The notes under the pieces: model-generated | Told to the model about the DNA's origin: nothing | Database searches by the model: none | The model's input: only the letters and a program-made list of their open reading frames with translations | DNA from: an uncultured marine group III euryarchaeote | GTDB lineage: Archaea > Thermoplasmatota > Poseidoniia > MGIII > CG-Epi1 | Length of the DNA: 64,000 bases | Direction of reading: 5' to 3' | Assembly (NCBI GenBank): GCA_902627615.1 | Contig: CACOJW010000006.1 | Location: forward strand, 31,204 to 95,203 | Translations under genes and position numbers: made by a program | In this document: piece after piece, positions 9,001 to 32,726 of the stretch | Layout: each line of letters starts with the position of its first letter | Numbering within the stretch: the stretch's first letter is position 1

Positions 9001-10163
9001 GACGTATGATTTCCAGTCTAATGGATGAGGAAGCTAAAGTTGATTCAGATATCATGAGTAGTATGTTAACAGCAATCAATGATTTCGTTAAAGATTCTTT
9101 CCAAACTTCAGGTAATTTAGGTTCAATTGATTATGGAGAAAACCAGATTATATTAGAGAGAGGAAAGCATACAATTCTCGCATCAGTTGTATATGGTGAA
9201 GCAAATCGTGATTTGAGGTCTAGAATGGGTCGTGCTTTAACAAAGATTGAAGGTGATTACGGATCTAAGCTAAGAAGCTGGAATGGTGACGTAGATAGTC
9301 TAAGTGATTGTGTACAGTACTTGCAACCAGTTATGGACATGAGTAAGTCTGTGACTAAGGATATGATTGATGAATTGCAAGCCTTGAAAGATGTAAGTTT
9401 AAGATCAAGTTGGAGCCAAGTAGCAGGCTTTGTTCAAGTTAACTTGATGATTAACAATTATTCCAAAAAACAGCTCAAAGGCGCTAAATTAACTTTAGAA
9501 TATGGTGCAGATTTCCTTAAGCTGGTTAAGACAGAACCAGAGCTAAAAAATACAGTTACTGAAGTTGATATTAAGAAAGTTGGAGCTAATGATGAGATGG
9601 CTGTAACATTGTATTTCGAACCATTAAAATCTACACAGGCCTCTTTGAATGTTCACTTAGATTATGAATCCAAAGGTGGTCAATCATCTGGAGTTTCTAC
9701 TGCAGTCTTTGAGCGTGTTAATTTGTACAAAGAAGGTGCTTCTCTCAACTTGTCTGATCTTGATAATGCGTCCAAGGCCGAAATTATTTCAGAGTCAGTT
9801 CCAGCCGAAGTTGTTGAAGCAAGTGTGGAAGACGTTGAAGTTGCAGCCGAAGTTGTAGATGTAGTGGAAGATGTTTCTTCTGATGTCGAAGTTTTAGATA
9901 CAGTTGTTGAGGAAGCTGAAGCATTTGAAACAGAGGAAGAGCCTGAGGAAGAACCTAAGAAGAAATCTAAGAAAAAGGAGAAAGTCGAGGAAGCTCAGCA
10001 TGATGTTCCTGACCCTGGTGAATCAGGTGTTGATGATATAATGAGTAAATTAGGTGAATTGGATGATCCTGAAAATAAGCCTAAAAAGAAAGAAAAGAAA
10101 TCAAATGACGCTGAAGATCCAGAAGGTATGGACGATATCTTAGGCAAATTAGACGAATTATAG
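1..10163 (+). CDS. Giant single-pass membrane protein, 5'-partial (>3,385 aa). Ectodomain of repeated beta-sandwich + parallel beta-helix modules, a LamG-like block and PKD/Ig-like blocks; one TM helix; cytoplasmic STAND/NB-ARC-like P-loop NTPase, Roadblock/longin-like domain, beta-sandwich and charged tail.
   Basis: The frame is open from base 3 to the TAG at 10161-10163, and the window starts inside a repeat unit, so the N-terminus lies upstream. There are five diverged ~90-aa units (YIDIDVND..YFGGNDPKTDSSG..YDGSST). Four of them are followed by IQTAID-x-A-x-GDTI..GTY-x-ENI and Asn/Asp-rich ~22-aa pseudo-repeats. LamG-like block IAYWPFDEG..LIDDLRFS at ~5500-6090. TM LPLIGGLAVGIVMILGTLAL + RRNRG at 7365-7439. 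Walker A GEPGVGKT at 7815-7838, VRVFYDD at 7935-7955, VIVTSRE at 8010-8030. Confidence 0.85.
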   Translation, partial: EDDINLGSSSVYSIGNTFSTVVVSSDSVLTVKSYIDIDVNDASGDNMSGIDIKVMEDDVQKYATSYFGGNDPKTDSSGTIATFLIDSKKYDGSSTSELIPTYVSARYYDWVETNSFDSSNTITVEVPDLRVQNTRTGTLTYHIQTAIDNAIEGDTIRAWNGTYFENIEVTEELTILGNGTSTIINGDNDTAIEIAEDSVTIKNVMIVSSEKGIYLNSIEDTIVDNVKFTTSEYGLYSEETQNLVVNNSIFDVVDYGIYLASSSTVKIEDNEFRNGTQNGDYCIYQSESSDNGGASIEDNKFNDCNVAWRSGSGSNTFRDNNLKDNEYGVLLSGTEANNNLLHDNNFDDSGVAVYIYNTAYDNNLYNNYIDDSDDYDIKLSDSYDTVSYNNTFSSISVASDANMWIKVYIDVDVTDNSSNALSNVDLQIKQDALVVYSTAYYGGSDSRTDVTGQIAEFLVATSLYNGSSTPTSVTTVVNARYSDWLSSEAYNINNDVDIKVDDFRVKNDDTDQMFYSINGAINAASNGDTLLIWAGTYYENVLLNKELTLTGNGTSSTIINGSYSGDVIAVTADEVLIEKLTIIGSGSGNSGILVSEGDSVFTDLRFADNDYSYYSEGDFNELSLSSILDSNYGAFVTGDNNIISQNTFSENGVSITFSSTSEDSRANNNEITDGTDTAIHLAGSEETTIRDNYIHNNSAYGVKLTNDSADNIIYDNDLEYNSEFSLLVVASGNNSIHNNTFKSNDDGSAKFDSSYYNVFRDNVLNANDDYLLLEGGGQNSISHNTFTEDGILIQNSNNQIITGNTITDAPDNGIRIFKSSSNNYLSDNLISGSDDEDIYVGGSGSQVNNRGFNNSFNTIKVQGNGEFVVLDFIGLRTINSEGNMSGNDVKATFGSSTLYASNYFGGNDPVTDSSGLIPDFIAPIEIYDGSSTPTKVITPMTVRFSDWTDTFNLDPYSGSSITVFVPELRVKNQNTGEWSYLVQTAIDDAGVNDVIILSNSTYRENIVVNKAGVTLQGPYSDRHNPGVIIDAQNDGCAITVTKSGIYILGLNVTNSFESDSPFNSSAIRIVSDNNEIRYNRVTNSYVGILADSTDNNEIIDNSIDEVEIGILLTKSNSNLIHSNFIDSVDEYDILLSNVGYSTGSSYNTIEGNIDIDSMRIHNSDSNFIVNSETITVTLSDSESISSVNSTFDYVVCDSDSSLYLKNYMNIEVSKLGSSLKNVDVRVKDGNNTFYSTQYFGGSDPKTTSSGSLPNDILVIYRVYDGSSSGTDNETSVKVRVGDWFKLSDDIIEGYTVFDFNVPHFRVENTNTNTKYAYVQTAIDNATAGHTIILEAGIYRENILIDKELTLTGETVTDGIMWDGVQTSAGSVLTVDNLGGLGAPPLANSSRAGIAIAASDVSITNLIIANFTHGISIDDSSDTDISDVIIIRTQDTGISITSSNGVIVSESKIIGKDTTGTGILIEESASSVNLVNLEVSYCSIGIIVDGEYISVDAVQIHSNSNDGIRITATSSDIVTANNVIHNNGGNALEVSGLTSGSFYGNLIYSNGNTEFRIISSHKLEIYDNIISDPEFGYGIHLTGGSDNEIHDNILHVSTWLDGSDGTLVYDNEFVNITGGSTTYDNSALIIASSNNTMSDNTIDNVGVAFAFLPINDPNYNLVENNTINIDSLQKSMEYYTSGMNNTFINTEMSYVDISEDSYFEILQYIDIEMNTVLGSAKNVELEITEGDSVIYATNRYNGSDSKTDSSGQIERLFLVSEIYDGDYVADYVVTTMKYYYDGVEYNSEIDTDSSHEEVIWVNLRPTAAIDSVIGIGDLSASSSEEAVKGADLLIVDDNTIAYWPFDEGTGELILDKTGVNTGTINFGGWQSEGRPNASDLNSVYFDGTYTNIDTSLLLIDQDEFTLEAWFNTDSTQTMTIVSDKDNEFQWGHNLYIEGFLKFDFTVDEGTVVSVNSISSVSDGEWHFVSVVRGQDYVELWLDGELVDSQSWSGEIDYTSSTIRIGQTAAGDPLPFKGLIDDLRFSSIARHHEDFMTGSGIVAFISDSFDDDGQIIDYIWTSSKDGELGRGSVLYYPVNDLNDGSHSIELLVIDNNGTVSDSVTSTLLVMQRPDSEIVYVRVNDEPAAWGWGINVNSGDEISFKGQSVGQFIIQYSWVSDLEGSIFDEGECSSDDSSVCVSEFKTDALANGTHFITFKVQAANSLWSPEQVIEISVNGRPEIGENIESTDEFLDRLKSAMFRVPIEDDSTVGNELSYVVEYRIKDSDDEWSSDYITSKIFNGETGNLEFEFSPDAEAEVGEYEFFIEVTDDTGGVSDYYIMNQGITVQNNIPEITNTNVDVDGDGEPDSEPVFQEGEQIELSIDTADEDGDVSNVTWYIDLDKDGEIDNDEIIGYGSSPAKEDIDYSVMTVGENEVTVVITDDDGDTSQDTFIIEITAAPVEESAVEVVLENFSNNLPLIGGLAVGIVMILGTLALRRNRGDSVGDIEVIPDPTDAASDRPEQVVEDWEIPTDAQGNALIIGEYMAKRREAYLTHPNNEEVLDYLHNNRERFTISSYFDVPADPTVVITDWALPENLRGNVHLDSFRQQLVERITNSTPDKNFVIIGEPGVGKTVMLFEVFDRLMYKSPVGILSTDTIAKAHEMFGVRVFYDDIPENQKLVEALTDNEISGVIVTSREADWKALPTEMQAKFDRLTVPLFSELDMKKMIEKMMTFQSIGFNDESVDVLAEYAEGSPIYVWSMVREMMHRSVKSLSAEYIKENSVKGMINYVAQLLQRLLKDGEEYRDGGLHALASLIFLSDHMEERYCNDYFFDAYVEELSKHTEEKLGDKMNPKTLNLVLAYLPINDSVIRFPHDTWPDVLQGWGDMNPFSTELRMINRAFADSGLFQDLKKEVVADVWNSTYERYKRTPSRQKNSFLALADTLFQNFTIDELKKLGVDIDIVRQVASTYSHIPQAAKLISKIQAVLPQTVTRIINMQDIDSEKGHVPYKIQEMYLIYNDGRMISSLMDEEAKVDSDIMSSMLTAINDFVKDSFQTSGNLGSIDYGENQIILERGKHTILASVVYGEANRDLRSRMGRALTKIEGDYGSKLRSWNGDVDSLSDCVQYLQPVMDMSKSVTKDMIDELQALKDVSLRSSWSQVAGFVQVNLMINNYSKKQLKGAKLTLEYGADFLKLVKTEPELKNTVTEVDIKKVGANDEMAVTLYFEPLKSTQASLNVHLDYESKGGQSSGVSTAVFERVNLYKEGASLNLSDLDNASKAEIISESVPAEVVEASVEDVEVAAEVVDVVEDVSSDVEVLDTVVEEAEAFETEEEPEEEPKKKSKKKEKVEEAQHDVPDPGESGVDDIMSKLGELDDPENKPKKKEKKSNDAEDPEGMDDILGKLDEL
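96..5410 (+). repeat. Five-fold modular protein-level repeat inside the giant gene (beta-sandwich unit followed by a beta-helix stretch)
   Basis: Unit starts near 96, 1212, 2602, 3607 and 5107. Each has the motif series hYhDh-V....h.V.h....YaT.YFGG.D..TDSSG.h..fh....YDGSS. The copies are diverged at DNA level; no long identical repeats were seen. Confidence 0.7.
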
Positions 10164-19349: not shown

Positions 19350-19392
19350 TACTCAATGAACCCTTTATAGCCCAGTTATTGAATGACCTATT

Positions 19393-22317
19393 ATGGCAGA
19401 CCCTGTAGATAGCGGAGGCCGGCGTTATGTCGTTCTAGCAGTAGTCATTATGCTATTGGCAGCTTTGCCTTTTTCTCCACTAGTTTCATTCAAGTCATCT
19501 CAGCATATTGATTCTCAATCAGCAACTACAGATTCGAATCTTCCCACTAAGGACAGTGATAACGATGGAATGCCAGATTGGTGGGAAATGGATTTTGGTT
19601 TAGATCCATATGATGCTTCAGATGCAGCACTAGATTCGGACAGTGATGGGCACGATAAGAATAGAAATGGCATTTTAGAAGTGGAAGAATATTTTACTAA
19701 TTTAATGGAATATGAAATGGACTTGGTAATAGGTAATAGTACGAATCCAATTGAAAGAGACACAGATAAGGATGGAATGCCGGACGGCTGGGAAGTTTAC
19801 TACAATTTAAATCCACAATATTTCCCAGACGGTGATGAGGATAATGACGAAGATGGATATGATGTTAATCGTGATTTGTATCTTAGCGCAGATGAAAAAC
19901 ATACTAATTTAGAGGAATATCTTGCAGGAACAAGTCCCTGGGAATACGATACAGATAGTGACACTATGCCCGATGGGTGGGAATTATTCTATGGATTAGA
20001 TCCGTTAATGTCTGCAGATGCCTGGTATGATACAGATGCTGATGGTTGGGATGCGAATTTTAATTCAGAGTTAGAATACGAAGAGAGATATTTCAATTAC
20101 ATGGAATATTACAATGATACTAATCCACTCATAGCAGATACAGACGGTGATACTATGCATGATGGTTGGGAAGTCTATTTTGGTTTAGAACCCCTTAGAG
20201 CTTCAGACAATTTTGAAGATAAAGAAGCAGATGGCTTGCCTAATGTTTATGAATATAATAACAGTCTAGTGAACACGGGATGGGTAGATAATGACGGTAT
20301 ATTCACCACTCGTCCAGACTACAATGATACAGATGAAGATACAATTTCAGATAACGATGAATTATTCATTTATTTGACGGATCCCACATCGAATGATACA
20401 GATGGAGATGGGATGCCCGACGGTTGGGAAATAGAGTACGGTCTGAATCCAATTTCAGCATTAGATGCAGCATATGACTCAGACAATGATGGTTGGGATT
20501 TTAACAGAAATTTCAATATAAGTGGTGATGAGTTATTTACTAATCTGGAAGAGTATCTTAACGGAACTGACCCTTCGAATAATGATACTGACGGAGATGG
20601 TATGCCTGATGGTTGGGAAGGATATTATGGGCTTCAACCGACAGATCCTTCTGATGCAAATCAAGATTTCGATGGAGATGGCTATGATATCAACCGAGAC
20701 GGCTTCATTTCATCTTCAGAGAGATTTAGTAATTATGAAGAATTCAAAAATGAAACAGCTCCAAATAATAATGACACAGATAATGATGGCATGTGGGATG
20801 GATGGGAAGTTTATTACGGTTTAAATCCTCTAGATGCTTTCGACGCAACAGTTGATAATGATGAAGACGGTTTCGATGCTAACTATAATGGAACTTTAGA
20901 GGAAGATGAAGAGCACAACAATATTCTTGAATTCCAGGCAGATACACATCCCTACATTGAGGATACAGATGCAGATGGAATGCTAGATGGATGGGAATGG
21001 CTTTATGGTTTAAATCCATTAAATCCTTTAGATGCAAATGCAGATAGTGATAATGACGGGGTAATTAATCGTCTAGAATATAACAACAGTGCAGCAGGAC
21101 CTTACATTGAAGTTGACAACATAACTTCATCGATGCCCAACAATAATGATACTGACGGCGACGGGCTTTTGGATGGCCAAGAATTATTCGTACATCTTAC
21201 AGATCCAACACATCCAGATACAGATGGAGATGGGATGCCAGATGGTTGGGAAGTCAAATATGGATTAAATCCATTAGATTCTGAAGACGCTTTGCTTGAT
21301 ACAGATAACGATAGTTTTGATTCAGATTGGAATGATAATCTAACTGAATCTGAGATATATGCAAACTTATACGAATATTTGAACGGTACAGACCCTACTA
21401 ACGGAGATACGGATAACGATGGAATGTCTGATGGATGGGAAGTCTTTTGGGGCTTTCAGCCATTGAATTCTAGTGATGCTACCGATGATCCTGACAATGA
21501 TTCACTTATCAATCTCTATGAATTTGATAATTCAAGAGTTGAAGGGTTTGATGATAACGTTTACAGCATTGATAATATTACAGGTTCCAATCCTCTTTTG
21601 AGAGACACGGACGCAGACCTGATTAGTGATGGCGAAGAATGTGTTTTTGGCGAAGATGGTTATGTTACGGATCCGTCAAATCCAGACTCAGATGGAGATG
21701 GAATGCCAGATGGCTGGGAAATGTTACATGGGTTGGATCCTTTCGATCCAAGTGATGGCGAATTAGATTCAGATAACGATGGTTGGGACTTTGATAGAAA
21801 CGGAACTGTAGAGCAATGGGAAAAATTTACTAATTACGAAGAATATCTGAATGGTACTGATCCAAACAATAACGATACAGACGGCGACGGTATGGTTGAT
21901 GGTTGGGAAGGTTATTACGGATTAAATCCTAGGTCTGTAGAAGACAGAGATTGGGATTCAGATGGAGATGGTTATGATTCCAACGGTGATGGTGAACTTT
22001 CACCCGATGAGAAATTCACTAATTTTGAGGAATATTTGATGAATACAAATCCTGTTAAAGCTGATACTGATGGAGATAACTGTACCGATGGATGGGAAAT
22101 ATATTGGAACGATAATAAGCCTGCAGATGAGAACAGGACCTTAGATCCATTAGATGGAATAGATGGCTTCTTAGATTATGATGAAGATGGCTGGGAAGAT
22201 TGGGAAGGCGTACAGTATAACTTCCCTAATTGGCGCGAGGAACAAGCCAACACTAATCCTTGGGATCCCGATACAGATGATGATGGAATGACAGATGGTT
22301 TCGAGGCGGATAACTAA
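19393..22317 (+). CDS. Secreted or anchored acidic protein built from ~14 thrombospondin-type-3-like Ca-binding repeats (DTDxDGMPDGWE-x2-YGLNP)
   Basis: N-terminal hydrophobic helix (YVVLAVVIMLLAALPF) followed by ~55-65-aa units, each with a DxDxDGxxDxxE loop, YGLNPLD and TNLEEY. It ends inside a unit (DTDDDGMTDGFEADN*). Confidence 0.8.
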   Translation: MADPVDSGGRRYVVLAVVIMLLAALPFSPLVSFKSSQHIDSQSATTDSNLPTKDSDNDGMPDWWEMDFGLDPYDASDAALDSDSDGHDKNRNGILEVEEYFTNLMEYEMDLVIGNSTNPIERDTDKDGMPDGWEVYYNLNPQYFPDGDEDNDEDGYDVNRDLYLSADEKHTNLEEYLAGTSPWEYDTDSDTMPDGWELFYGLDPLMSADAWYDTDADGWDANFNSELEYEERYFNYMEYYNDTNPLIADTDGDTMHDGWEVYFGLEPLRASDNFEDKEADGLPNVYEYNNSLVNTGWVDNDGIFTTRPDYNDTDEDTISDNDELFIYLTDPTSNDTDGDGMPDGWEIEYGLNPISALDAAYDSDNDGWDFNRNFNISGDELFTNLEEYLNGTDPSNNDTDGDGMPDGWEGYYGLQPTDPSDANQDFDGDGYDINRDGFISSSERFSNYEEFKNETAPNNNDTDNDGMWDGWEVYYGLNPLDAFDATVDNDEDGFDANYNGTLEEDEEHNNILEFQADTHPYIEDTDADGMLDGWEWLYGLNPLNPLDANADSDNDGVINRLEYNNSAAGPYIEVDNITSSMPNNNDTDGDGLLDGQELFVHLTDPTHPDTDGDGMPDGWEVKYGLNPLDSEDALLDTDNDSFDSDWNDNLTESEIYANLYEYLNGTDPTNGDTDNDGMSDGWEVFWGFQPLNSSDATDDPDNDSLINLYEFDNSRVEGFDDNVYSIDNITGSNPLLRDTDADLISDGEECVFGEDGYVTDPSNPDSDGDGMPDGWEMLHGLDPFDPSDGELDSDNDGWDFDRNGTVEQWEKFTNYEEYLNGTDPNNNDTDGDGMVDGWEGYYGLNPRSVEDRDWDSDGDGYDSNGDGELSPDEKFTNFEEYLMNTNPVKADTDGDNCTDGWEIYWNDNKPADENRTLDPLDGIDGFLDYDEDGWEDWEGVQYNFPNWREEQANTNPWDPDTDDDGMTDGFEADN

Positions 22318-22900
22318 TGCATAACTTGATGCAATACCTTTATTTACGAGTAAAAGGATTTCTACGCGTAGGTGAAGCATGTTAGTGAAGCAAGTTATTG
22401 CATTGTTTTTAGTCGTTTTAATGCTAATTTCACCTCTGACCACCTTGTCAGTTACGGCAGATATGGATCCAGATGAAGATAACGATTTAGATGGTTATGA
22501 TGCCAACAGAGATGGAATTCTATCTGACGATGAAAAATACACTAATTTAGAGGAATATTACAACAATACTAATCCTAATGATGAAGATACCGATGATGGA
22601 GGAGCGTGGGATGGTTGGGAAGTTTATTATGGATTTAATCCACGTATCTCTTCGGATGATTCTCTTGATTCAGATAGTGATTCTCTTATTAACAGCCTAG
22701 AGTTTTTTTGGGATGCAGATCCATTTAGTTCAGACACAGACCAGGATGGGATGCCTGACGGTTGGGAAGATACATACTCAGATAGACTGCCAGAAGGTTG
22801 TGGTCTTAATCCAACAATTTCAAGTGATAAATTTGGTGATCCAGATGGAGATGGATCCGATAATTTGAGGGAGTATCAAGAGGGAACCAATCCTTGTGAT
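19540..22900 (+). repeat. Coding tandem repeats (DGWE / TSP3-like units) spanning the 974-aa gene and the first ~170 codons of the next gene
   Basis: Recurrent DNA blocks such as gatacagatggagatgggatgccagatggttgggaa near 20398, 20587, 21229, 21689 and 21886. The copies are imperfect. Confidence 0.8.
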
Positions 22901-25900
22901 GAAGACAGTGATGATGATGGAGATCCAGATGGAGAAGATCCACCTCCTGTTGATCCCGGTGATGATGACGAAGGCAATCCCGACACAGGTGCTACAGACG
23001 GTAATGTGACAATCTACGAAATATTTGATCCAGTCCTTGGTACAGCTAAAAGATGGAATGCCTTAGATGGTCTACTTTATGACGATCAGGCTTCGAATCC
23101 GAATGATATGTATACCATGTATAACTTTGATTCAGATAAGTATGAAATTTTCCCCACAAATTTTGAAGGTTACTCAAATGTCTTTGAAGGTTGGATATGG
23201 ATGGGAATCCAAGTTACTACCAACGATTATACTCGAATTCCTTCAGTTTCCCCAGACGCAGATATCATAGATTACGATCCCAATGCTACCGGGGTAACTA
23301 TTAGTTTTTTCAAAGATGGAGCAGATAATTACTACGTTCAAGGTAGTGAAAATATTGTAATTGATTTGAAATATCGAATGGGCACTAATGGTTCATATTT
23401 CAACAGACCTATTTCAGAAGATTTAACACTAGATGACCTTCCTAATGAAGCAATAAGGCAAATCAATGGGGCAAACCAAGTTAAAGAAAATGTAAAAGAT
23501 TTCTTGCAATACAAGCATGATAATGGGACAATTGCTAACGAACCACTCTATTGGCTTTGGCCTGAAAATGGTACTCCTGAAACTAATTTAGCATTAATAA
23601 TCAACAATTTAACATGGTATTTTTCAGCTTTCATAGAAGGTGATGGTGATGTTCCAGATGCAGAGGAACCGTGGGATGTCTATCAATCGATTTGTATCAA
23701 CGGTATTGGGGCTTGTAGGCATCGTTCTTTTGGTTTCTTCGTAACGGCTTTGGCACTGGGAGCTCCAACTAGATATGTTTCAAATGAAGCACATGCTTTT
23801 GTCGAAGTTTATGTTCCTGAAGATAATGAAACTTTTTCAGCAAGTCATTGGAAAAGAATTGACTTAGGAGGGACTGGAAGCAGTACAACTCTTGACAGGC
23901 CTGATGACGAGGAGGACGATGGTGATACTTTTGATTTTGATGATATGGATCCCGATGATATTGAGAATATGACTGGGGAACTAGTTACAATTGTAATGAC
24001 TCAAATTTCACCTGACAACCGAGTTGATAAGGGTGAAGAGATAACCATTAGTGGATATGCAGAAGATCAAAATGGAACTAGGATTCCTAATTTTAATGTT
24101 GGATTTGGAATGTGGGATAAGGAACATTCAGAGCCAGCTTTTGAAATAGGTCAAACAGTTACTAATTCCTCAGGTAATTTTGAATTTAATACGACTGAAT
24201 TTTTATCGGCCCTGCCCGGCGAAAATGAGATTTATGCAGCAGCATATGAACAAGGTTTTTTGGGACTTGATGGTCCAGAAGATATAGAAATATACTCAGA
24301 TTCAAACTTGGTGTTAGACAATCCCGAGTCTGTAGGTAAGGGTCAAGATTTGATAGCTTCTGGTACTCTACTTGATGCAGGCGGCGTTCCAGTTGAAGGA
24401 GCTACTCTAACAGTTTATTTGTGGGAAGATCCATACTGGGGAACTCCTAATTGTAATAACAGTTGGCCAGCCATATTATGTAATATTGGTGAAATTGAAG
24501 GAGAGCCAGTTACTGATGAGTTTGGTAATTTTGTATTTAGTTGGACAGTTCCTGAAGATGAAGATGACCAACCTACTGCAGACACAGATTACCATATCTA
24601 CATCGCCTATGATGCTCCCGATGCTGATGATAATGATTTGCCAGATGATTATGTTTATTCCACAAGTCAGTCAACAGATCTAATTATTTTGGATTCAAGT
24701 GTAGATTTAGAAGCCTCACTTGAACCAAGCAAGGAATATGTAGGAAATAAATTCTGGGTAAATGGAACTATATCTGATTCAGCTGTTGACAATGGTAAGA
24801 TTAATGTTGAACTTTCAGGATTTGAGCTTTCCGTAATAGATGTTGTGCAAGCAGATTGGTCAATGGAAGTAATAGTTCCACAAGATTTATCAGCAGGAAA
24901 TTACACAGTTATAGTTTCATTTGAAAGTAGCGAAGCAACTTTACCAGATGAGAGAGTTGATTTGAATTTTACAGTATTAGGAACAAGTCGCATAGTATTA
25001 GATACAGACACTTTGAAATTTACAAGGGGGCAAAATGCTACTTTCGAAGGAGAGCTTCTTGACCATCTAGATCAGCCGATTGCAGATCAGAGTATTGATT
25101 TAGTATGGGATGGAATTTCCATAGCCACAGTGACTACTGAAATTGATGGAGATTTCACATTCACATACAGCATACCAGAAGACCATGCATTGGGTAATAT
25201 TACATGGTTAGCGAAGTTTGAGGGTAATGACCTCTACCTAGGTTCTAATGAATCACAAATTTCCGAGGTTTTCCAGCAGTCAGTTCTATCGCTTCAATCA
25301 GATGACAGGCACTTTTATTCTGGAGAAAGCATGATTTTGAGTGGAAGTCTTACATATGACAACGAAACTTTGTTGCCAGGAGCACTTTCAATTTATTTTG
25401 ATGGTAATTTCTTGCAATCCTTCATTACTAACGGGACTTTTAGTTTTGAATATACTCCCGATGCGTCTTATTTGGATGTAGGCGAGCATACAATAGAAAT
25501 TAAATACAGTGAAAACGGGTATAATCTTGCAGGTAATGCAGACGTAGACGTTTACCTTCATCGTAAAGTTTTCTTATCTATGGAAGAAGACCAAGTTCTT
25601 AGAGATACTGAAGTTACAATGACTGGTTTTGCAAGAGATGAGTCTTCATTTGGAATATCAGGAATTGATTTGTCTTTTGTTTGGGGTGAAAATTCACTAG
25701 ATGATGTAGCCACTACTACATTTGGAGGTTCATACACTAAGACCTATTTGGTTCCAAATTCTCAAATTTTGGGTAAAGTTGAAGTTCAAGCTATTTTTGA
25801 TAATACGACTTCACCGTATTATGATAATTCTACACAAATTTTTGAATTTACTATAGTTTCAGAGACAGTCATTAATTTACCAGACTTGGAGATAATAAGA

Positions 25901-28333
25901 GGAGAAGAAATATGGTTTAACGGCACTATCTTTGATGACAGGGGCCAAGCAGTAAAAGAAATTGAAGTTAATGTATTTTGGGATGATGAGTATCTAAGAA
26001 GAGTAAGTGGAGATACGAATGGCAGTTTCACCTTTATATGTTCAAATGAATGGTCTTGTTCAGATTCAGATTATCCGGCAGGGATTGTTCCTGTGAAATT
26101 ATCATTTGGAGGTTTCGGCTATTATTTACCTTCAACATATGTGGCAAATTATACAATATGGGGAAATACAAATATTACAATTCTTGAATTTAGTGAAGTA
26201 GTAGTTGCTAGTCAAAATGTGACGTTTAGCGGATTTATAGAGAATGACTTAGAAGTTCCATTAGATAGGGAGGTAACACTCCTTTGGGATGGCATAACTA
26301 GAACAACAGTAAATTCGATTAATGGGGAATTTACAGGTACCTTTGTTATTCCATCTAACACAATTGCAGGAAATCACACATTAACTGCTCAAATTAACGA
26401 TCAAAATTTCTTGAGAGGCACCTCAGACGATGTTGAAGTTTTGGTTATGCGCGAGACAGAATTAACAGTTCAGTGGTTGGGTGGATTTAGAAATTCGACA
26501 TCAGTTGTTTCTGGCTATTTACGAGATGTTGTTGGCGTCGGTCTTCCAGGTTATCACCTCGATATTTATTTTGATGATGAATATGTAGGAAATGCTACTA
26601 CAGGAGAGTCAGGTCTTTTTGTTTATGACTTACTTGTTGATAAAGAGACTGAATTAGGTACTCATAGCATAGCAATTGTGTTTGAAGGATCTTATTTCTA
26701 CTTATCTTCGGATATAGAAGTAGAGTCTGAAATTTTAGCTAACACTTATTTTGTAACAGATTCCTTAGAAGTCTTGAGATTGCAAGAATTTTATCTTAAA
26801 TCGTATTTGTTTGATGATTTAGGTAATCCAATGGTTAATCAATCAGTAAATGTTACTTTTGAAGGTCAAACTTATCAACTGTTTACAGATTCCGAGGGCT
26901 ATGTTGAGAAAAATTTGACTCTGTCGTCAACTCATTCTCTTGGAATTTATACAGCTACCTGGAGCTTTGTTGGGTATCAATATTATCTTCCTTCTGATAA
27001 CGTTCAAACTATAGTTGTTGTAGCTTCTACGAGCATTAGCATAGAGTCAGATTCAGAAGTAATCGTTGGGGAATCATTTGAGTTTAGCGGAAGAATTATT
27101 GATGACATGGGTAATCCTCTAAGTACAAATCTAAATTTCCTTTTCCAAGGGCAATATGTGGAAGGCTTAGTTACAGATAGTGACGGTCGTTTTTCGCATG
27201 AGTATTTAGTTCCGCATTACACTGATGCAGGATCAAATACGATTACAGTAACTTATGTTGCAGAAGATTATTACCTTCCATCTTCATCAATATGGCAACT
27301 TCAAGTATTTCATAATACACGCATAGAGATGAATGAGTTTGAAGCTCTTTTGAATTCCACAGTGCCTATAACCGGTTTCGTTTACGATAAGGCGGATAGG
27401 CCAATCGAGGGTTTGAGTGTAAGATTAGTTATGGATTCCAATTTCCCAATTGATGGCATAACTGATAGCAACGGTGAATTTAGTATACCTTTGAATGTTC
27501 CCTTCGGAACGGAATTAGGATATCACAATTTGACAGTTACATTTGCAGGTAACGACGAATATATCGATAACTTTACAGAATCAAGAATTTTTGTCATGGG
27601 CGAGACCAAATTGATTCTTGAAGTTCCAAGTACTTTAGAATACCAACAATCCTACACTGGAAAAGTTACCTTAACTATGCTTGATGGAAGTCCGGTATCG
27701 GGAGCTCCGTTATTGGTTGCTTTCCAACCAAATGGAGTAACTTCTATGGTTATTACAGATTCAAATGGTACTGCATCTTTTGATTCAGTATTCTCAGGTA
27801 ATGATACAGTACCTATGATAGTCAAGGTTACTTACACCGGCGATGAATATTACATTGGTAATGAAGTCGAATCAACAATTATATTCAGGCCACCTACTCA
27901 AGAGGCAAATTATTCGTTTTGGATAATTTTAGCAGCTACATTAGTCGGCGGTTCGGGAGTAATGCTAGGTTGGAAATGGTATAGAGACAGACACTTAAGA
28001 GAAATAAGAAGAATCCTAGAATCGACTGCTTTAGCTCTTGAAGCCAATATGGATTACAGGGATTCAGTCGTCCATTCCTATAAGGAAATGTGTAAAATAT
28101 TGCATGGTTATGGATATTTGAGGCAGCATTTTGAGACCGTCCGGGAATTCCAAATAGCTTTAGAGGAAGCTCTACCTTTAGATCATAGTTCTGTTGCTAA
28201 TCTTACTTTACTTTATGAGGAAGCTGATTATACTTCTAAAAGTTTAGATGATGATCATAGGCTTAATGCAGTTTCATCTCTCAGAACTATCATCGAAAGC
28301 TTAGATACGAGTAATGAAAAGCTAGAGGATTGA
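22379..28333 (+). CDS. Giant transglutaminase-like envelope protein: signal peptide, TSP3-like repeats, transglutaminase core, ~12-13 Ig-like domains, TM helix, cytoplasmic DUF4129-like domain
   Basis: Signal-like N-terminus. Cys-His-Asp core GACRHRSFGF..EAHAFVEVYV..WKRIDLGG at ~23700-23880. Repeated ~95-aa beta units (e.g. ATFEGELLDHLDQPIADQSIDLVWDG..DGDFTFTYSIP). TM FWIILAATLVGGSGVMLGW. Tail with the TVREFQ..LLYEEADY pattern. Confidence 0.8.
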   Translation: MLVKQVIALFLVVLMLISPLTTLSVTADMDPDEDNDLDGYDANRDGILSDDEKYTNLEEYYNNTNPNDEDTDDGGAWDGWEVYYGFNPRISSDDSLDSDSDSLINSLEFFWDADPFSSDTDQDGMPDGWEDTYSDRLPEGCGLNPTISSDKFGDPDGDGSDNLREYQEGTNPCDEDSDDDGDPDGEDPPPVDPGDDDEGNPDTGATDGNVTIYEIFDPVLGTAKRWNALDGLLYDDQASNPNDMYTMYNFDSDKYEIFPTNFEGYSNVFEGWIWMGIQVTTNDYTRIPSVSPDADIIDYDPNATGVTISFFKDGADNYYVQGSENIVIDLKYRMGTNGSYFNRPISEDLTLDDLPNEAIRQINGANQVKENVKDFLQYKHDNGTIANEPLYWLWPENGTPETNLALIINNLTWYFSAFIEGDGDVPDAEEPWDVYQSICINGIGACRHRSFGFFVTALALGAPTRYVSNEAHAFVEVYVPEDNETFSASHWKRIDLGGTGSSTTLDRPDDEEDDGDTFDFDDMDPDDIENMTGELVTIVMTQISPDNRVDKGEEITISGYAEDQNGTRIPNFNVGFGMWDKEHSEPAFEIGQTVTNSSGNFEFNTTEFLSALPGENEIYAAAYEQGFLGLDGPEDIEIYSDSNLVLDNPESVGKGQDLIASGTLLDAGGVPVEGATLTVYLWEDPYWGTPNCNNSWPAILCNIGEIEGEPVTDEFGNFVFSWTVPEDEDDQPTADTDYHIYIAYDAPDADDNDLPDDYVYSTSQSTDLIILDSSVDLEASLEPSKEYVGNKFWVNGTISDSAVDNGKINVELSGFELSVIDVVQADWSMEVIVPQDLSAGNYTVIVSFESSEATLPDERVDLNFTVLGTSRIVLDTDTLKFTRGQNATFEGELLDHLDQPIADQSIDLVWDGISIATVTTEIDGDFTFTYSIPEDHALGNITWLAKFEGNDLYLGSNESQISEVFQQSVLSLQSDDRHFYSGESMILSGSLTYDNETLLPGALSIYFDGNFLQSFITNGTFSFEYTPDASYLDVGEHTIEIKYSENGYNLAGNADVDVYLHRKVFLSMEEDQVLRDTEVTMTGFARDESSFGISGIDLSFVWGENSLDDVATTTFGGSYTKTYLVPNSQILGKVEVQAIFDNTTSPYYDNSTQIFEFTIVSETVINLPDLEIIRGEEIWFNGTIFDDRGQAVKEIEVNVFWDDEYLRRVSGDTNGSFTFICSNEWSCSDSDYPAGIVPVKLSFGGFGYYLPSTYVANYTIWGNTNITILEFSEVVVASQNVTFSGFIENDLEVPLDREVTLLWDGITRTTVNSINGEFTGTFVIPSNTIAGNHTLTAQINDQNFLRGTSDDVEVLVMRETELTVQWLGGFRNSTSVVSGYLRDVVGVGLPGYHLDIYFDDEYVGNATTGESGLFVYDLLVDKETELGTHSIAIVFEGSYFYLSSDIEVESEILANTYFVTDSLEVLRLQEFYLKSYLFDDLGNPMVNQSVNVTFEGQTYQLFTDSEGYVEKNLTLSSTHSLGIYTATWSFVGYQYYLPSDNVQTIVVVASTSISIESDSEVIVGESFEFSGRIIDDMGNPLSTNLNFLFQGQYVEGLVTDSDGRFSHEYLVPHYTDAGSNTITVTYVAEDYYLPSSSIWQLQVFHNTRIEMNEFEALLNSTVPITGFVYDKADRPIEGLSVRLVMDSNFPIDGITDSNGEFSIPLNVPFGTELGYHNLTVTFAGNDEYIDNFTESRIFVMGETKLILEVPSTLEYQQSYTGKVTLTMLDGSPVSGAPLLVAFQPNGVTSMVITDSNGTASFDSVFSGNDTVPMIVKVTYTGDEYYIGNEVESTIIFRPPTQEANYSFWIILAATLVGGSGVMLGWKWYRDRHLREIRRILESTALALEANMDYRDSVVHSYKEMCKILHGYGYLRQHFETVREFQIALEEALPLDHSSVANLTLLYEEADYTSKSLDDDHRLNAVSSLRTIIESLDTSNEKLED

Positions 28334-28334
28334 C

Positions 28335-29636
28335 ATGGCAGTTTCTAGCCGTTCCGGTATAATTATCTTATTTGCTACCATTACAGCGTGTACTTTGATT
28401 TTATTTCCAATTCTACAAATTGTTGTGGAAAGAGATCCTCAATTATCCGCTTATGATGATGATTGGAATGATATTTCCAAATTTAGGGAAGCACTCGAGA
28501 ATGAACCTGACACCTCGTATAATGTAAGCGCTATATTATCAAATCCTGCAGTTCTTGATGAGGTTAGTAATCCTTCTTCAACTTTACTTGTAATAGCAGG
28601 AACAGAATCACCATACACAACTCTTGAATTGGAAATACTTGTAAGTTTTATGGAAAAAGGGGGCAGCATTTTAGTTTTTGGAGATTTTGATTATTCAAAT
28701 ACTATAGCCGATTTGTTCGCAATTGAATATGTTAAACACAAACTTTGGGATAGAAATTATAGAGGTAATGTTTCTTTGATTGAAACAACAGCTTTTATCG
28801 ATGGTCAATCTTACAATGTTCTTTTGAATGAACCTGTTGCAATAAAAGCTCTCGATAGTCAAGAATTGAATCTTTGGAGTTCAGGTTTTGAATGGTCAAG
28901 AAATGTTTTCATGACTACATCCAGTAATTCCTGGATTGATTCAGATGATGATGGCGCTATAACTCCAGAAGATGAAGTTGCACCACTCTCCGGATTCACT
29001 TTAGGTATGAGTTGCGGTATGAAATCTAAAGGAGAACCTCTTGGTTCAGCTGTTTTCATCTCAGATTCTAGTTTACCAATAAACAACATGTGGTCTGAAG
29101 GTCAAAATTCAGAATTTCTTTTAGCTTTAGTCGATTCAATGATTGGAGATAGCGGAGTTATTTTGTTCGATGAATCAAGACATACTCAAGAATCATTTGG
29201 AGCAAGTCTTTTTCAGGCAGCTTTAGGTTTTTATTTTCTTTTATCAGGTGATACTCTAATTCTTCAAATTATAAGGCTAAATGTGCTTGTGGCAGTCATT
29301 ATTCTTACGATGGCATTGTCTATGCGACAGCCAGAACCAAAACGTTGGTTTCATATTTTTGATGTACGTAAACCGAGACCATTTAGATCATACGGACATA
29401 ATTTAGACAATTCAATATTGGCATTACAAGAAACGTTGTTAGAGCGTATGAGATTAAAGTATCAAATTTATGAATTCGATGAAAAGTCTAGGAAAGATAG
29501 ATTAGAATATTTACCTAATGTAGTTAAGAGTTATAATATACCCTTAGATGATGATTTTAAGATGCTTCTGGGTGCGCCTACTAAGGTAGGGCCCAATGAC
29601 CTGCGAAACATCGCTAAAAAATTGAGTACGTGGTGA
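28335..29636 (+). CDS. DUF4350-like membrane protein (N-terminal TM, extracytoplasmic domain, TM, cytoplasmic tail)
   Basis: Segment LLVIAGTESPYTTLELEILVSFMEKGGSILVFGD is typical of this family. Starts 1 nt after the upstream stop and overlaps the MoxR gene by 7 nt. Confidence 0.55.
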   Translation: MAVSSRSGIIILFATITACTLILFPILQIVVERDPQLSAYDDDWNDISKFREALENEPDTSYNVSAILSNPAVLDEVSNPSSTLLVIAGTESPYTTLELEILVSFMEKGGSILVFGDFDYSNTIADLFAIEYVKHKLWDRNYRGNVSLIETTAFIDGQSYNVLLNEPVAIKALDSQELNLWSSGFEWSRNVFMTTSSNSWIDSDDDGAITPEDEVAPLSGFTLGMSCGMKSKGEPLGSAVFISDSSLPINNMWSEGQNSEFLLALVDSMIGDSGVILFDESRHTQESFGASLFQAALGFYFLLSGDTLILQIIRLNVLVAVIILTMALSMRQPEPKRWFHIFDVRKPRPFRSYGHNLDNSILALQETLLERMRLKYQIYEFDEKSRKDRLEYLPNVVKSYNIPLDDDFKMLLGAPTKVGPNDLRNIAKKLSTW

Positions 29637-30628
29637 AATTGAGCGAAGGAAAAAAAGGAACCGGAAAAGCGATTTCCATAGAGGAAACAAATAAGGCCGC
29701 GAAATCTATTGCTGATGAAGTATCAAGCGTAGTTTTAGGTAAGGAACAAACAATAGAGATGGTTATGGCAGGAGTTTTAGCAAACGGCAATATTTTGTTC
29801 GAAGATTTTCCTGGATTGGCAAAAACTCTAATGTCCAATACATTAGCAGATGCTTTAGGTTGTGAATTTAAGAGAATTCAATTTACTCCAGATTTACTTC
29901 CGGCAGATATCACAGGCTCATATTTTTATGATCCAGAAAAGAATAAATTCACTTTCAGGGAAGGGCCTATTTTTTGTAATATACTATTAGCAGATGAAAT
30001 TAACAGAGCACCTCCAAAAACCCAAGCAGCATTATTAGAGGCAATGCAAGAAAAACAAATTACAATTGAAGGTACTACTCATAAATTGTCTCAACCATTT
30101 ATTGTTCTAGCCACTCAGAATCCTATTGAATATGAAGGAACTTATCCTTTACCAGAAGCTCAAATGGATCGGTTTTTGATCAAGCTTAGCGTAGGATACC
30201 CAGATGAAGATGTAGAAACTGGTATTTTGCAAGGTCGTTCAGAACGTAAAAAAGATTCATTCGCAGTTAAGGCAAGAGCCTCACCTGAGGAAGTGGTTGC
30301 AATGCATGAATCGATAGAGGAAGTTTATGTTAAGAAAGAAGTAATGCGCTATATTGTGAATTTGGTTCAAGCAACTCGTCGTGACCCTCGAGTGGCAGTT
30401 GGCTCTAGTCCTCGTGGAAGTTTGGGTTTGTTTAAGTTATCAAGAGCTCTAGCAGTATTGTCCGGCAGAGATTACGTAGTTCCAGATGACATTAAGAGAG
30501 CAGCACTTCCAGTTCTCGGCCACAGAGTAATTTTGAAACCTGAGGCGCGCATCCGTGGCGTTAAGGTAGAAGAAATTATATCTGAATTATTAATGACAGT
30601 TGAAGTTCCTGCTGTTACAGTGGAATAG
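29630..30628 (+). CDS. moxR: MoxR-family AAA+ ATPase
   Basis: Walker A variant DFPGLAKT, Walker B LLADEINRAPPKTQAALLEAMQE, and ATQNPIEYEGTYPLPEAQMDRF. GTG start. Confidence 0.88.
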   Translation: MVKLSEGKKGTGKAISIEETNKAAKSIADEVSSVVLGKEQTIEMVMAGVLANGNILFEDFPGLAKTLMSNTLADALGCEFKRIQFTPDLLPADITGSYFYDPEKNKFTFREGPIFCNILLADEINRAPPKTQAALLEAMQEKQITIEGTTHKLSQPFIVLATQNPIEYEGTYPLPEAQMDRFLIKLSVGYPDEDVETGILQGRSERKKDSFAVKARASPEEVVAMHESIEEVYVKKEVMRYIVNLVQATRRDPRVAVGSSPRGSLGLFKLSRALAVLSGRDYVVPDDIKRAALPVLGHRVILKPEARIRGVKVEEIISELLMTVEVPAVTVE

Positions 30629-30636
30629 TATAGCAA

Positions 30637-31884
30637 ATGTGGACTCGTAAGGCCGTGGTATATGCTGGCCTTGGAACAATCCTAGTTCTATTTTCTCCAT
30701 TTATTAATAATCTTCAATTGTTTTTATTGGGTACAACTATATTGGGTTTCGTAGCTATTCACAGCTTAGTTAATACCAGTCCAATTGATGTTAAAGTTAC
30801 AAGAACTTTTGATTCAGATCAAGTGTTTGAAAACAGTAATGTAAGTGTTGATTTAATTATACAAAACAAGGGACGTTCTGTTGGTTTTTTAGAAATATAC
30901 GATAATTTACCTTCTGAACTCGAAGTAAACAACGGCTTAAATCATACAATCATAAAATTAAGAAAAGAGGAATTAGTAATTAATAAATACAATTTAGACT
31001 GTCGACTTCGAGGTCAATACAGATTAGGAAATCCTAGTTTGAGAATTTATAATCCTTCATTCTTATTTTATTATGAAGCAGATATTGAATCTAAGTCTAG
31101 TTTGGTTGTTTTACCACAGATCGAGCAGATTGAAGGTGTAGATTTATCTACAGATTTCCCTAAAATGTATCAGGGAGCTATGCCTATCAGAAGGATAGGA
31201 ACAAGTGGAGAGTTTTACGGGATTCGTGAATATATGCCAGGCGATGATTTTAAGAATATTAACTGGAGAGTTTTCGGAAGAACGAGAAAACTAATGGTTA
31301 ATCAATTCGAAAGAGAAGATATTTCAGATATTATGCTTGTGCTTGATGCAAGAGAAATTTCAGGAACAGGTACGGTATTGAGAAATCCATTAAATTATTC
31401 TTGTAGAGCTGCAGCCTCTTTGACTAGTTTCTTTCTAAGAGCTCGTAACAGAGTGGGTTTAACGATCTATGGTGAAACTGTTAACGTAATCCCTCCGGAC
31501 ACTGGAGAGAGACATCTTTATCGCATTTTAACAGCTTTAGCAGAAGTTAAGCCAAGCGGGGGGTTAGGTCTTCACACGGTATTGGGAGATTTGCGTAATT
31601 TCACTCCTAGATCTCCAGTAATGGTTCTTTCTACGTTAGAAAGCGATCCAACCAGTACGACAGCCCTCAGAGAAATTACTGCAAGAGGTTTCAAGCTAAC
31701 AGTTATTGCTCCAGACACATTGGATTATGATCGTGAGGCACGTATAATATCTCCAACAGTTTATTTCACAGCTTCAGCTTCATTAGACAACAAAATCACT
31801 GAGGCACGTTCACTCGGTGCCAGAGCTATGCGTTGGGATCCTGAAAGCGTACTATCAACATCTCTAGCGGAGGTTGTAGTTTGA
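30637..31884 (+). CDS. DUF58 protein (vWA-like partner of MoxR) with N-terminal TM helices
   Basis: Signature FYGIREYMPGDDFKNINWRVFGRTRKLMVNQFERE followed by an LVLDA vWA-like strand. Confidence 0.8.
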   Translation: MWTRKAVVYAGLGTILVLFSPFINNLQLFLLGTTILGFVAIHSLVNTSPIDVKVTRTFDSDQVFENSNVSVDLIIQNKGRSVGFLEIYDNLPSELEVNNGLNHTIIKLRKEELVINKYNLDCRLRGQYRLGNPSLRIYNPSFLFYYEADIESKSSLVVLPQIEQIEGVDLSTDFPKMYQGAMPIRRIGTSGEFYGIREYMPGDDFKNINWRVFGRTRKLMVNQFEREDISDIMLVLDAREISGTGTVLRNPLNYSCRAAASLTSFFLRARNRVGLTIYGETVNVIPPDTGERHLYRILTALAEVKPSGGLGLHTVLGDLRNFTPRSPVMVLSTLESDPTSTTALREITARGFKLTVIAPDTLDYDREARIISPTVYFTASASLDNKITEARSLGARAMRWDPESVLSTSLAEVVV

Positions 31885-32726
31885 ATACAACAAATAGTTT
31901 ATCTCTGATGCAGGGAATTGCAACTTTCTCGCTGATGTTTAGTCTGGGTCTTGCATATGTGATAAACCCCATAGATGATTCTCTTTTTTTCAAAGCATTA
32001 GATGGGATAATTTCAGGAATTTATGGAAAAGAGGTATTAGATGAATTAAATAATTCTGCAGTTGCAGGAATGCTAGTTGGGCTTTTTGCAGGTACTTTGT
32101 TTGTCTTTTTGAGCATGAATAAAAAAGTTTATAATTATTCTATTTTATTTTTGTTTACATTTTCATCTTTAGTCTTTCTAGCAGACATAATGAATTATGA
32201 TTCTTTCCCATATCAAGTAACTCAGCAATTATTCCTTTGGTTTTGGATAGGCCTTCCAATATTTGTTGGAATAATTGGGATATGGCAAGATTATATAGGT
32301 AATCAAATTGTTGCAGCTTTTTTAGTTTTGGTTATGCCTTTAGGTTTGTCAGGAAATACTAATGAGCAAATTTATCCAATTCTTGGATTTGTATTTTCTT
32401 TTATGCTATATATTGAGTTAAGCTATGGGCATACCAGGTATAGCCGACTTGCAAGAGTAATGCATTATTCTAGAGAATATGAAACAGTTTTACAATGGTT
32501 TTTAGTTACTTTAGTAATAACTCTAGCTTTGACCACAGGATTAACATCAATAGCTTTCTTATTTCACGATTTTCTTAGTGGTTTACTTCCCTACAGCTTC
32601 AGGAATTCTATAGAATTTAATACGATATACGGGCAAGCATTATCGGTTATGGTCTTTTTTATGATATGGGCTGTTGTTCAAACTTTATTTTCACGCGGTT
32701 ATCTTGCTCGACAAGTAGAAGATTAA
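31881..32726 (+). CDS. Polytopic membrane protein, last gene of the MoxR/DUF58 cluster
   Basis: About seven hydrophobic helices. Overlaps the DUF58 gene by 4 nt. TTG start; ATG at 31908 is an alternative. Confidence 0.5.
   Translation: MNTTNSLSLMQGIATFSLMFSLGLAYVINPIDDSLFFKALDGIISGIYGKEVLDELNNSAVAGMLVGLFAGTLFVFLSMNKKVYNYSILFLFTFSSLVFLADIMNYDSFPYQVTQQLFLWFWIGLPIFVGIIGIWQDYIGNQIVAAFLVLVMPLGLSGNTNEQIYPILGFVFSFMLYIELSYGHTRYSRLARVMHYSREYETVLQWFLVTLVITLALTTGLTSIAFLFHDFLSGLLPYSFRNSIEFNTIYGQALSVMVFFMIWAVVQTLFSRGYLARQVED

Follow-up and report, generated by a model that had tools for sequence, protein, structure and literature searches.

Operons that pair a MoxR ATPase and a vWA-domain protein with a transglutaminase-like (TGL) protein related to TgpA/YebA are very common and were predicted to form a membrane-proximal degradation system (Zhang & Aravind 2012, PMC3495828). 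The periplasmic domain of TgpA from Pseudomonas aeruginosa has transglutaminase activity in vitro, and there is strong evidence that tgpA, which is predicted to share an operon with PA2875 and PA2874, is essential (Milani et al. 2012, PMC3507681). For archaea, loci combining DUF4350, MoxR and vWA proteins with immunoglobulin (Ig)-like surface proteins were proposed to encode a secretion or membrane-remodelling complex (Makarova, Galperin & Koonin 2015, PMC5898192), and archaeal surface TGL proteins have been described as peptidases (PMC4858521). A 2026 preprint on actinobacterial MoxR-vWA clusters describes a Sec-secreted filament protein with 14 Ig-like domains, EsrA, which is encoded alongside MoxR, vWA and transglutaminase proteins and is freed upon loss of the transglutaminase EsrD (10.64898/2026.09.08.750141). 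MoxR-DUF58(vWA)-transglutaminase modules nevertheless remain among the commonest prokaryotic operons lacking a known function. Here we describe a cluster of six genes (g1 to g6) of this kind in a 64,000-nucleotide (nt) stretch of contig CACOJW010000006.1 from an uncultured Marine Group III (MGIII) euryarchaeote (hereafter the window). A preliminary description of the window had stated that no mechanism or substrate was established for such neighbourhoods; no substrate is known for this kind of module, but with the in vitro activity and apparent essentiality of TgpA these neighbourhoods are not wholly uncharacterised. Because modules of this type have already been described, both as MoxR-vWA-TgpA-like and as DUF4350-MoxR-vWA-Ig loci, the MGIII cluster is an architectural variant that is new in build only, and our literature search found no paper connecting MGIII with it.

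The identities, topology and conservation of the six products were established computationally. The open reading frames (ORFs) are as follows, with lengths in amino acids (aa) and Pfam scores in bits:

19393-22317, forward strand: g1, a 974-aa secreted acidic protein with calcium-type repeats (TSP3_bac, 70.6 bits).
22379-28333, forward strand: g2, a 1,984-aa type-I membrane protein with a transglutaminase-like head.
28335-29636, forward strand: g3, a DUF4350 (PF14258)/arCOG01314-type protein (42.5 bits against a cut-off of 30.4).
29630-30628, forward strand: g4, a MoxR AAA+ ATPase of the MoxR-proper (MRP) type (AAA_3, 216.2 bits against 27; AAA_lid_2, 83.8 against 22.7).
29801-29833, forward strand: Walker A of g4, EDFPGLAKT, intact as read directly.
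29978-30007, forward strand: Walker B of g4, NILLADE, intact as read directly.
30637-31884, forward strand: g5, a DUF58 (PF01882) protein (82.3 bits against 23.4) with the signature FYGIREYMPGDDFKNINW.
31881-32726, forward strand: g6, a 281-aa polytopic protein of an unnamed family with seven hydrophobic segments (about seven transmembrane (TM) helices).

Successive genes are separated by a single nucleotide at g2/g3 (TGAcATG) and by 8 nt at g4/g5, and they overlap by 7 nt at g3/g4 and by 4 nt at g5/g6 (TTGA). The six same-strand genes and tight junctions of the preliminary description are thus borne out by the ORF coordinates, as are its calls of DUF4350, the MoxR Walker motifs and the DUF58 signature, for which the Pfam scores exceed their cut-offs and the motifs can be read directly.

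The product of g2 makes the MGIII version of the module easy to read, as an enzyme head, a stalk, a membrane anchor and a predicted cytoplasmic DUF4129 tail lie in one chain:

22379-22978, forward strand: signal peptide (aa 1-27), then acidic TSP3-like repeats (aa 28-200) that are homologous to those of g1.
22979-23968, forward strand: TgpA-like head, a beta-sandwich with a transglutaminase/papain-fold core, predicted from alignment, AlphaFold2 (AF2), Foldseek and a PDB profile search.
23714-23716, 23792-23794 and 23861-23863, forward strand: predicted catalytic codons for Cys446, His472 and Asp495, placed by alignment and checked at the codon level.
24032-27907, forward strand: stalk of 13 Ig-like domains in tandem, each of about 95 aa (aa 552-1843), from an iterated hidden Markov model (HMM) search on g2.
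27914-27970, forward strand: TM helix (aa 1846-1864), a hydrophobic segment with a Lys/Arg-rich stretch after it.
28079-28285, forward strand: DUF4129 (PF13559; aa 1901-1969), 29.1 bits in a C-terminal scan.

Membership of the head in the transglutaminase-like superfamily is supported by PF01841-bearing relatives, near-invariant Cys and His residues and structural matches, despite a Pfam score below threshold: Transglut_core (PF01841), which has a cut-off of 23, scores 17.6 bits when the segment is scanned by itself and is unlisted for the whole protein. Residues 201-530 share ~30% identity over 92% of their length with ~550-aa bacterial proteins that do carry PF01841, and the columns G-x-C-R-H-R, N-E-A-H-A-x-x-E-V and R-I-D-L-G-G are near-invariant in the alignment with relatives. 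The AF2 model of the head (predicted local distance difference test score (pLDDT) 79.6) places a beta-sandwich before an alpha/beta core, and its best PDB matches in Foldseek are 6g4h and 6g49, the periplasmic domain of P. aeruginosa TgpA (E = 2e-6, probability 1.0), with 3isr, annotated as a putative cysteine protease, in third place, followed by TG2. A profile of the head family likewise has 6g49 as its top match among PDB sequences (E = 0.028), with the Cys, His and Asp motifs aligned. None of the complete MGIII orthologues departs from Cys446 or His472. At position 495, the window and its closest relatives have Asp, and most other MGIII orthologues have Asn (RINLGG). The previously proposed Cys-His-Asp core therefore has triad, fold and relatives on its side and the Pfam score against it.

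The remainder of the chain is assigned with similar detail. The iterated HMM yields 13 Ig-like matches (E = 1e-19 to 1e-34), and Pfam lists CarboxypepD_reg, Big_3_5, Big_1 and MG4 in the stalk; these repeats occupy about 1,300 of the 1,984 residues, so that the Ig stalk of ~2,000 aa in the preliminary description was an overestimate. The TM helix is followed by WKWYRDRHLREIRR and then by DUF4129, and the Lys/Arg-rich stretch after the helix predicts a cytoplasmic location for the tail. Against a cut-off of 24.8, DUF4129 reaches 23.7 bits in a scan of the full-length protein and 29.1 bits in one restricted to the last 150 residues; with the domain found in 22/22 orthologues and paralogues of g2 (best E = 3.5e-13), the proposed DUF4129-like tail holds for the C-terminus and the family and falls short only in the whole-protein scan. 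At the other end of g2, the acidic repeats include one canonical DTDQDGMPDGWE motif.

Overall, g2 and its surroundings show the layout of the TgpA family: an extracytoplasmic beta-sandwich and transglutaminase head, a TM helix, a DUF4129 domain and a MoxR-DUF58 operon context. TgpA itself carries DUF4129. The likeness to the TgpA (PA2873)/PA2875/PA2874 operon lies in the two-domain extracytoplasmic head, the clustering with MoxR and DUF58, and the succession of TM helix and C-terminal DUF4129. In contrast to TgpA, which begins with a polytopic DUF3488 domain, g2 begins with a signal peptide, and no DUF3488 was seen in it; it also adds TSP3-like repeats, and 13 Ig-like domains separate its head from the membrane. 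The gene order differs as well, with g2 preceding MoxR and DUF58 where the TgpA gene follows them, and DUF4350, g1 and g6 are additional partners.

By sequence, the g2 head is nearer to a stand-alone bacterial family than to TgpA. Its nearest relatives outside the class Poseidoniia are secreted proteins of ~550 aa (P0007-P0098), the named ones mostly from Myxococcota/Deltaproteobacteria, in which a beta-domain is followed by a transglutaminase core of the CRHR type, then by a linker and finally by one Ig-like domain (for example P0025 and P0010; loci L001 and L002/L003). These proteins share with g2 the beta-domain, the CRHR...NEAHAFVEV...RIDLGG core and the placement of an Ig-like domain after the head, but have a single such domain instead of 13 and are without TM helix, DUF4129 and TSP3 repeats.

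The neighbouring gene g1 encodes a candidate partner or substrate for this enzyme. Its product has an N-terminal hydrophobic signal or anchor segment (aa 13-31), no C-terminal anchor, 15 TSP3 motifs of the DTDxDGxxDGWE type that are predicted to bind calcium, 25 N-x-S/T sequons and a strongly acidic composition (27% D+E, 3% K+R). As previously suggested, g1 and the N-terminus of g2 share repeats: those of g1 align with g2 residues 23-173 at 42% identity (BLASTP, E = 3e-25). CglD and MtsD, adhesion/cohesion proteins of Myxococcus, resemble g1 in being secreted with arrays of bacterial-type TSP3 calcium-binding repeats. Orthology to either is ruled out, as g1 scores 170.8 bits against a cut-off of 400 and 167.4 against 800 for the respective NCBIfam equivalogs, and the match is confined to the repeats.

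The remaining four products are three predicted membrane proteins and an ATPase. For g3, hydrophobic segments at aa 9-27 and about aa 295-326 predict an N-terminal TM helix, a GldG/GIFT-like extracytoplasmic domain (aa 40-266), a second TM helix and a basic cytoplasmic tail of ~100 aa; Pfam adds weak matches to ABC_transp_aux and IFT52_GIFT, and a PDB sequence search with this protein returned nothing significant. By its sequence, g4 is a soluble MoxR-proper ATPase with predicted hydrolysis and hexamer formation; it matches the MoxR structure 2r44 in the PDB (E = 1.2e-81), and the bpMoxR profile scores 32 bits against 216 for AAA_3. Walker A variants of the PGLAKT type are typical of MoxR. The g5 protein begins with a TM hairpin (aa 6-41), followed by the DUF58/vWA-like region, and its PDB sequence search gave nothing significant. 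Given the hairpin, the bulk of g5 should face the cytoplasm beside MoxR, unlike the secretion suggested by Makarova et al. At the position of the metal-ion-dependent adhesion site (MIDAS), g5 reads D-A-R-E-I-S in MGIII and D-T-R-D-V-A in Marine Group II (MGII), neither of which is the canonical DxSxS.

The sixth gene is a conserved membrane component of the module that was defined in this analysis. Neither g6 nor 20 diverse sixth-gene relatives matched any Pfam family, and DUF3488 was absent from all 21 at E <= 1, so that the idea of g6 as a split-off TgpA membrane domain is unsupported. Profile comparison with hhalign links g6 to the sixth gene of MGII (96.8%, E = 3e-10) and to that of a paralogous MGIII locus (89%, E = 2e-6), with unrelated membrane proteins as controls under 2%. 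An AF2 model of g6 from a low-diversity alignment reached a pLDDT of 43.6, and an exact look-up of the protein with its TTG start returned no database record.

The genomes nearest to the window are Marine Group III euryarchaeotes of the class Poseidoniia, the best being the single-cell genome AG-343-J07 (g3 96% identical). To place the cluster among its relatives, we fetched 79 genome loci with a g3 query (a three-sequence DUF4350 alignment), a set that is biased towards Poseidoniia, called ORFs in them and searched these with the window proteins; 43 loci were MGIII-type. Homologue searches with g3 and g6 were saturated by near-identical marine sequences. Counting only loci with enough sequence, g1 adjoins g2 upstream in 28/28 MGIII loci, and orthologues were found for g2 in 41/41 (including two g2-bearing loci missed by the distance filter), for MoxR in 40/40, for DUF58 in 40/40 and for g6 in 37/37. 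The order g1 to g6 is kept in every sufficiently long MGIII locus while the flanks vary: the M24 peptidase flank is present in 21/23 loci and the transketolase-like (TK-like) gene, next on the same strand, in 21/30. The six genes stay together from 96% g3 identity down to 33-36% (L043, L045, L046), where the flanks are different. The ATPase, DUF58 and the g2 head are best conserved and the g2 stalk least, the head being 49-71% and the stalk 31-44% identical in L035, L043 and L046. These data confirm the six genes as a conserved unit rather than chance neighbours. Both neighbourhood checks proposed in the preliminary description, on conservation of the genes together and on co-occurrence of the TSP3-repeat gene with the cluster, thus came out in its favour within MGIII, and MGII versions were without the TSP3 protein.

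Two of the MGIII assemblies show peculiarities. The metagenome-assembled genome CG-Bathy1 holds two complete six-gene clusters (L015 and L043; g3 77% and 48% identical to the window), which reflects either a true duplication or a bin mixing two populations. On a 1.6-Mb long-read contig (L084:4044-9999), the g2 orthologue was called as ORFs of 677, 1,115 and 123 aa, a split most likely due to assembly indel errors rather than genuine.

A second, paralogous MGIII locus (L051, L053, L066, L069, L072) encodes a giant protein, DUF4350, MoxR, DUF58 and a protein with six or seven TM helices, in that order. Its complete giant (L072:978-9968; 2,996 aa) carries a canonical Transglut_core (78 bits) together with 17 TSP3 repeats, Ig-like domains, DUF4129 and a TM helix. 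Domains of the g1 and g2 types are therefore fused in one chain, and no other observation in this analysis argues as strongly for a functional link between g1 and g2. A homologous polytopic protein occupies the sixth position, after DUF58, in three diverged systems: MGIII, the MGIII paralogue and MGII.

The MGII loci, together with three from other Thermoplasmatota, keep DUF4350, DUF58 and the polytopic protein, with MoxR missing from its slot; MoxR was not detectable within 10 kb in MGII-type loci and in some of the other Thermoplasmatota. There is no giant gene beside the MGII core, while L048, from another member of the Thermoplasmatota, keeps one. Relative to MGII, TSP3 and transglutaminase giants are confined to MGIII-type loci, which limits how far the full architecture can be generalized. 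All 27 MGII-type loci (L054-L083) instead have a CDC48-family double AAA+ gene (~741 aa) directly upstream on the same strand, 171-556 nt from DUF4350 (~560 aa), which is followed by DUF58 (417 aa) and the polytopic protein (~405 aa; for example L056:7344-14061). This linkage could be plain lineage synteny or could mean that CDC48 replaces MoxR. One contig in this group (L078, CAXRAI010000014.1) is labelled Salinimicrobium sp. (Bacteroidota), yet its gene order (CDC48-DUF4350-DUF58-polytopic) and proteins fit MGII, and it was probably mis-binned.

Two further described systems share parts of this architecture. With the putative archaeal arCOG01314 complex (PMC5898192), the cluster has in common the DUF4350 topology, adjoining MoxR and vWA/DUF58 genes, Ig-containing surface or membrane proteins, small membrane proteins and an archaeal host. 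That description contains neither a transglutaminase nor DUF4129, and a COG4743/PF07760-type S-layer-like component was not found by Pfam in the six MGIII products; here the Ig protein is instead a single giant enzyme-bearing chain, with a TSP3 protein added. The actinobacterial Esr clusters and the PFNA locus of Bifidobacterium (pkb2-fn3-aaa-duf58-tgm) also place MoxR, vWA/DUF58, a transglutaminase and a long Ig or FN3 surface protein in each locus, and their transglutaminase was proposed to hold the surface protein on the cell. They differ in that this enzyme is a separate polytopic protein, unlike g2, and in having a Ser/Thr kinase, a phosphatase, an FHA protein and a beta-propeller or cytokine-binding head, none of which is present in the MGIII cluster.

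Short elements upstream of g1 and g2 bear on how the cluster may be transcribed:

19362-19369, forward strand: candidate TATA-like element CCTTTATA, located 24-31 nt before the ATG of g1.
22318-22378, forward strand: g1-g2 spacer with a ATACCTTTAT(T/G)TA...TACGCG..GGTG element before the ATG of g2, from comparison of orthologous spacers.

The first is a possible archaeal promoter, with a motif count in the window not above chance. The second recurs at the equivalent spacer position in most of the listed MGIII loci, L043 and L046 being exceptions, and resembles an archaeal B recognition element (BRE)/TATA box plus ribosome-binding site, likely a separate promoter for g2-g6. As the CCTTTATW motif is not above chance in the window count, the promoter idea draws solely on this kept position in orthologous spacers. 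The kept element suggests that g2-g6 are probably one transcription unit and that g1 is transcribed separately.

Taken together, these findings are best explained by an MGIII variant of the MoxR(MRP)-DUF58-TgpA-like module, extended by DUF4350 and a polytopic protein, that builds or modifies an outer coat; we give this reading a probability of roughly 0.4. We infer the substrate, the chemistry (transamidase or peptidase), the target of MoxR and the physiological role from the architecture. The proteins g2-g6 would be co-translated and form a single membrane complex, in which, by predicted topology, g3 exposes its GldG/GIFT-like domain outside and has its basic tail inside, g5 is held at the membrane by its TM hairpin, and g6 would serve as a family-specific polytopic partner. 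A MoxR hexamer with DUF58 as adaptor may spend ATP on the tails of g2 (DUF4129) and g3 and on the loops of g6, all on the cytoplasmic side, and thereby assemble or switch the complex. If the 13 Ig-like domains are extended, the head would act tens of nanometres from the membrane on g1, a secreted protein with no anchor of its own, and/or on the g2 repeats, either tethering and cross-linking them by transamidation or trimming them. The outcome would be a calcium-stabilized, glycosylated outer coat or adhesive layer, and the idea that the cluster may assemble, cross-link or anchor a surface layer is plausible.

Several observations weigh against this account. The 974 residues of g1 include just 12 Lys and 11 Gln, and therefore offer few possible sites for Gln-Lys cross-links. 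Asn at the third catalytic position of most orthologues is papain-like, which makes peptidase chemistry as likely as transamidation. The non-DxSxS MIDAS of g5 makes a classical metal-dependent vWA adaptor mode, as in CbbO, ViaA or NorD, doubtful. The ~550-aa relatives of the head stand alone in the two contexts examined, away from MoxR, and the MGII core occurs without MoxR or a giant, so that the core module can work without either. Finally, g1 seems to own a promoter, and hence its co-regulation with g2-g6 is not required.

The papain-like Asn also belongs to an alternative that we regard as unlikely, membrane-proximal proteolysis or quality control, in which the head trims, matures or sheds g1 or g2 while MoxR and DUF58 bring in or unfold its substrates or regulate its activity. 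This was the prediction for MoxR-vWA-TGL operons (PMC3495828), archaeal surface TGL proteins have been called peptidases (PMC4858521), and the third-best structural match of the head, 3isr, has a protease annotation. Against it, MoxR resides in the cytoplasm and the head outside the cell at a distance from the membrane; ATP-driven unfolding therefore cannot directly feed the active site. Moreover, TgpA, the nearest solved relative, is a transamidase in vitro (PMC3507681). Somewhat less probable still is a surface sensor, with the Ig-stalk protein sensing a ligand or contact and signalling through its TM helix and DUF4129 to MoxR-DUF58, inside-out or outside-in. The faster evolution of the stalk relative to head and ATPase would fit a sensor, as would the resemblance to MoxR-vWA-beta-propeller ternary systems and the actinobacterial Esr pathway (10.64898/2026.09.08.750141). 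The cluster and its flanks, however, contain no kinase, phosphatase, FHA, beta-propeller, effector or defence gene; the neighbours are housekeeping genes (M24 peptidase, ThiF, Lhr helicase, transketolase-like, GATase, MFS/ATG22 transporters, DNA polymerase D and methylmalonyl-CoA mutase), PADLOC gave zero matches, and g4 fits the bpMoxR profile far less well than AAA_3.

A secretion or membrane-remodelling machine, in which DUF4350, MoxR, DUF58 and g6 export or insert g1 and g2, was predicted for arCOG01314-MoxR-vWA neighbourhoods with Ig-like surface proteins (PMC5898192) and is in our view improbable for this locus. Its attractions are that g1 and g2 are very large, acidic and cargo-like and that DUF4350 weakly resembles GldG of a transporter associated with gliding and the type IX secretion system; yet both proteins bear ordinary N-terminal signal peptides, no channel-forming or secretion ATPase component was identified among the cluster products, the bulk of DUF58 is predicted to be cytoplasmic rather than secreted, and the MGII core persists without giant cargo genes alongside. 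Equally hard to favour is a bolder form of the coat-building idea, an archaeal surface organelle not seen before, in which an extracellular cysteine enzyme on a stalk, with a length of tens of nanometres, would be deployed or activated from within by a MoxR-DUF58 motor. By acting on the DUF4129 tail, the motor would provide an inside-out switch of the integrin kind, and the covalent building or remodelling of a calcium-bridged TSP3 coat would fall to the head. The g6 family and DUF4350 would provide the membrane platform, and the CDC48 ATPase would replace MoxR in MGII. That the genes form no functional unit, and adjoin by chance or lineage synteny only, is very improbable. The M24 peptidase and TK-like/GATase flanks are also syntenic in close relatives and g1 probably has its own promoter, but in distant loci the flanks are lost or inverted while g1-g6 remain together, the genes overlap or are nearly contiguous, the paralogous locus has an identical layout and joins domains of the g1 and g2 types in one protein, and the sub-modules recur in the literature.

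The cluster is a good system for learning the role of MoxR-DUF58-transglutaminase modules, not a new kind of system. Its candidate substrate or partner g1 adjoins g2 and is fused into the same chain in the paralogue, and the pairs we suggest for testing are the g2 head with g1, DUF4129 with MoxR-DUF58, and g3 with g6. MGIII and MGII are abundant groups of uncultured archaea, and a conserved, multi-copy surface system in them is relevant to particle attachment or to the building of the cell surface.

Elsewhere in the window, three further genes encode proteins with surface-type or cell-wall-type domains. A 3,381-aa ORF at 18-10163 (forward strand; 18 is its first start codon) has nine Beta_helix/NosD stretches and a Laminin_G_3 domain, and is a second giant surface protein with no relation to the six-gene cluster. 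At 52527-55679 (forward strand) lies a 1,050-aa subtilase (Peptidase_S8) with CARDB, Big_7 and PKD domains, which is probably a protease that is secreted or displayed at the surface. The third, at 46564-47175 (forward strand), encodes a protein with a Peptidase_M23 domain, here in an archaeon; M23 enzymes usually cleave peptidoglycan cross-links.

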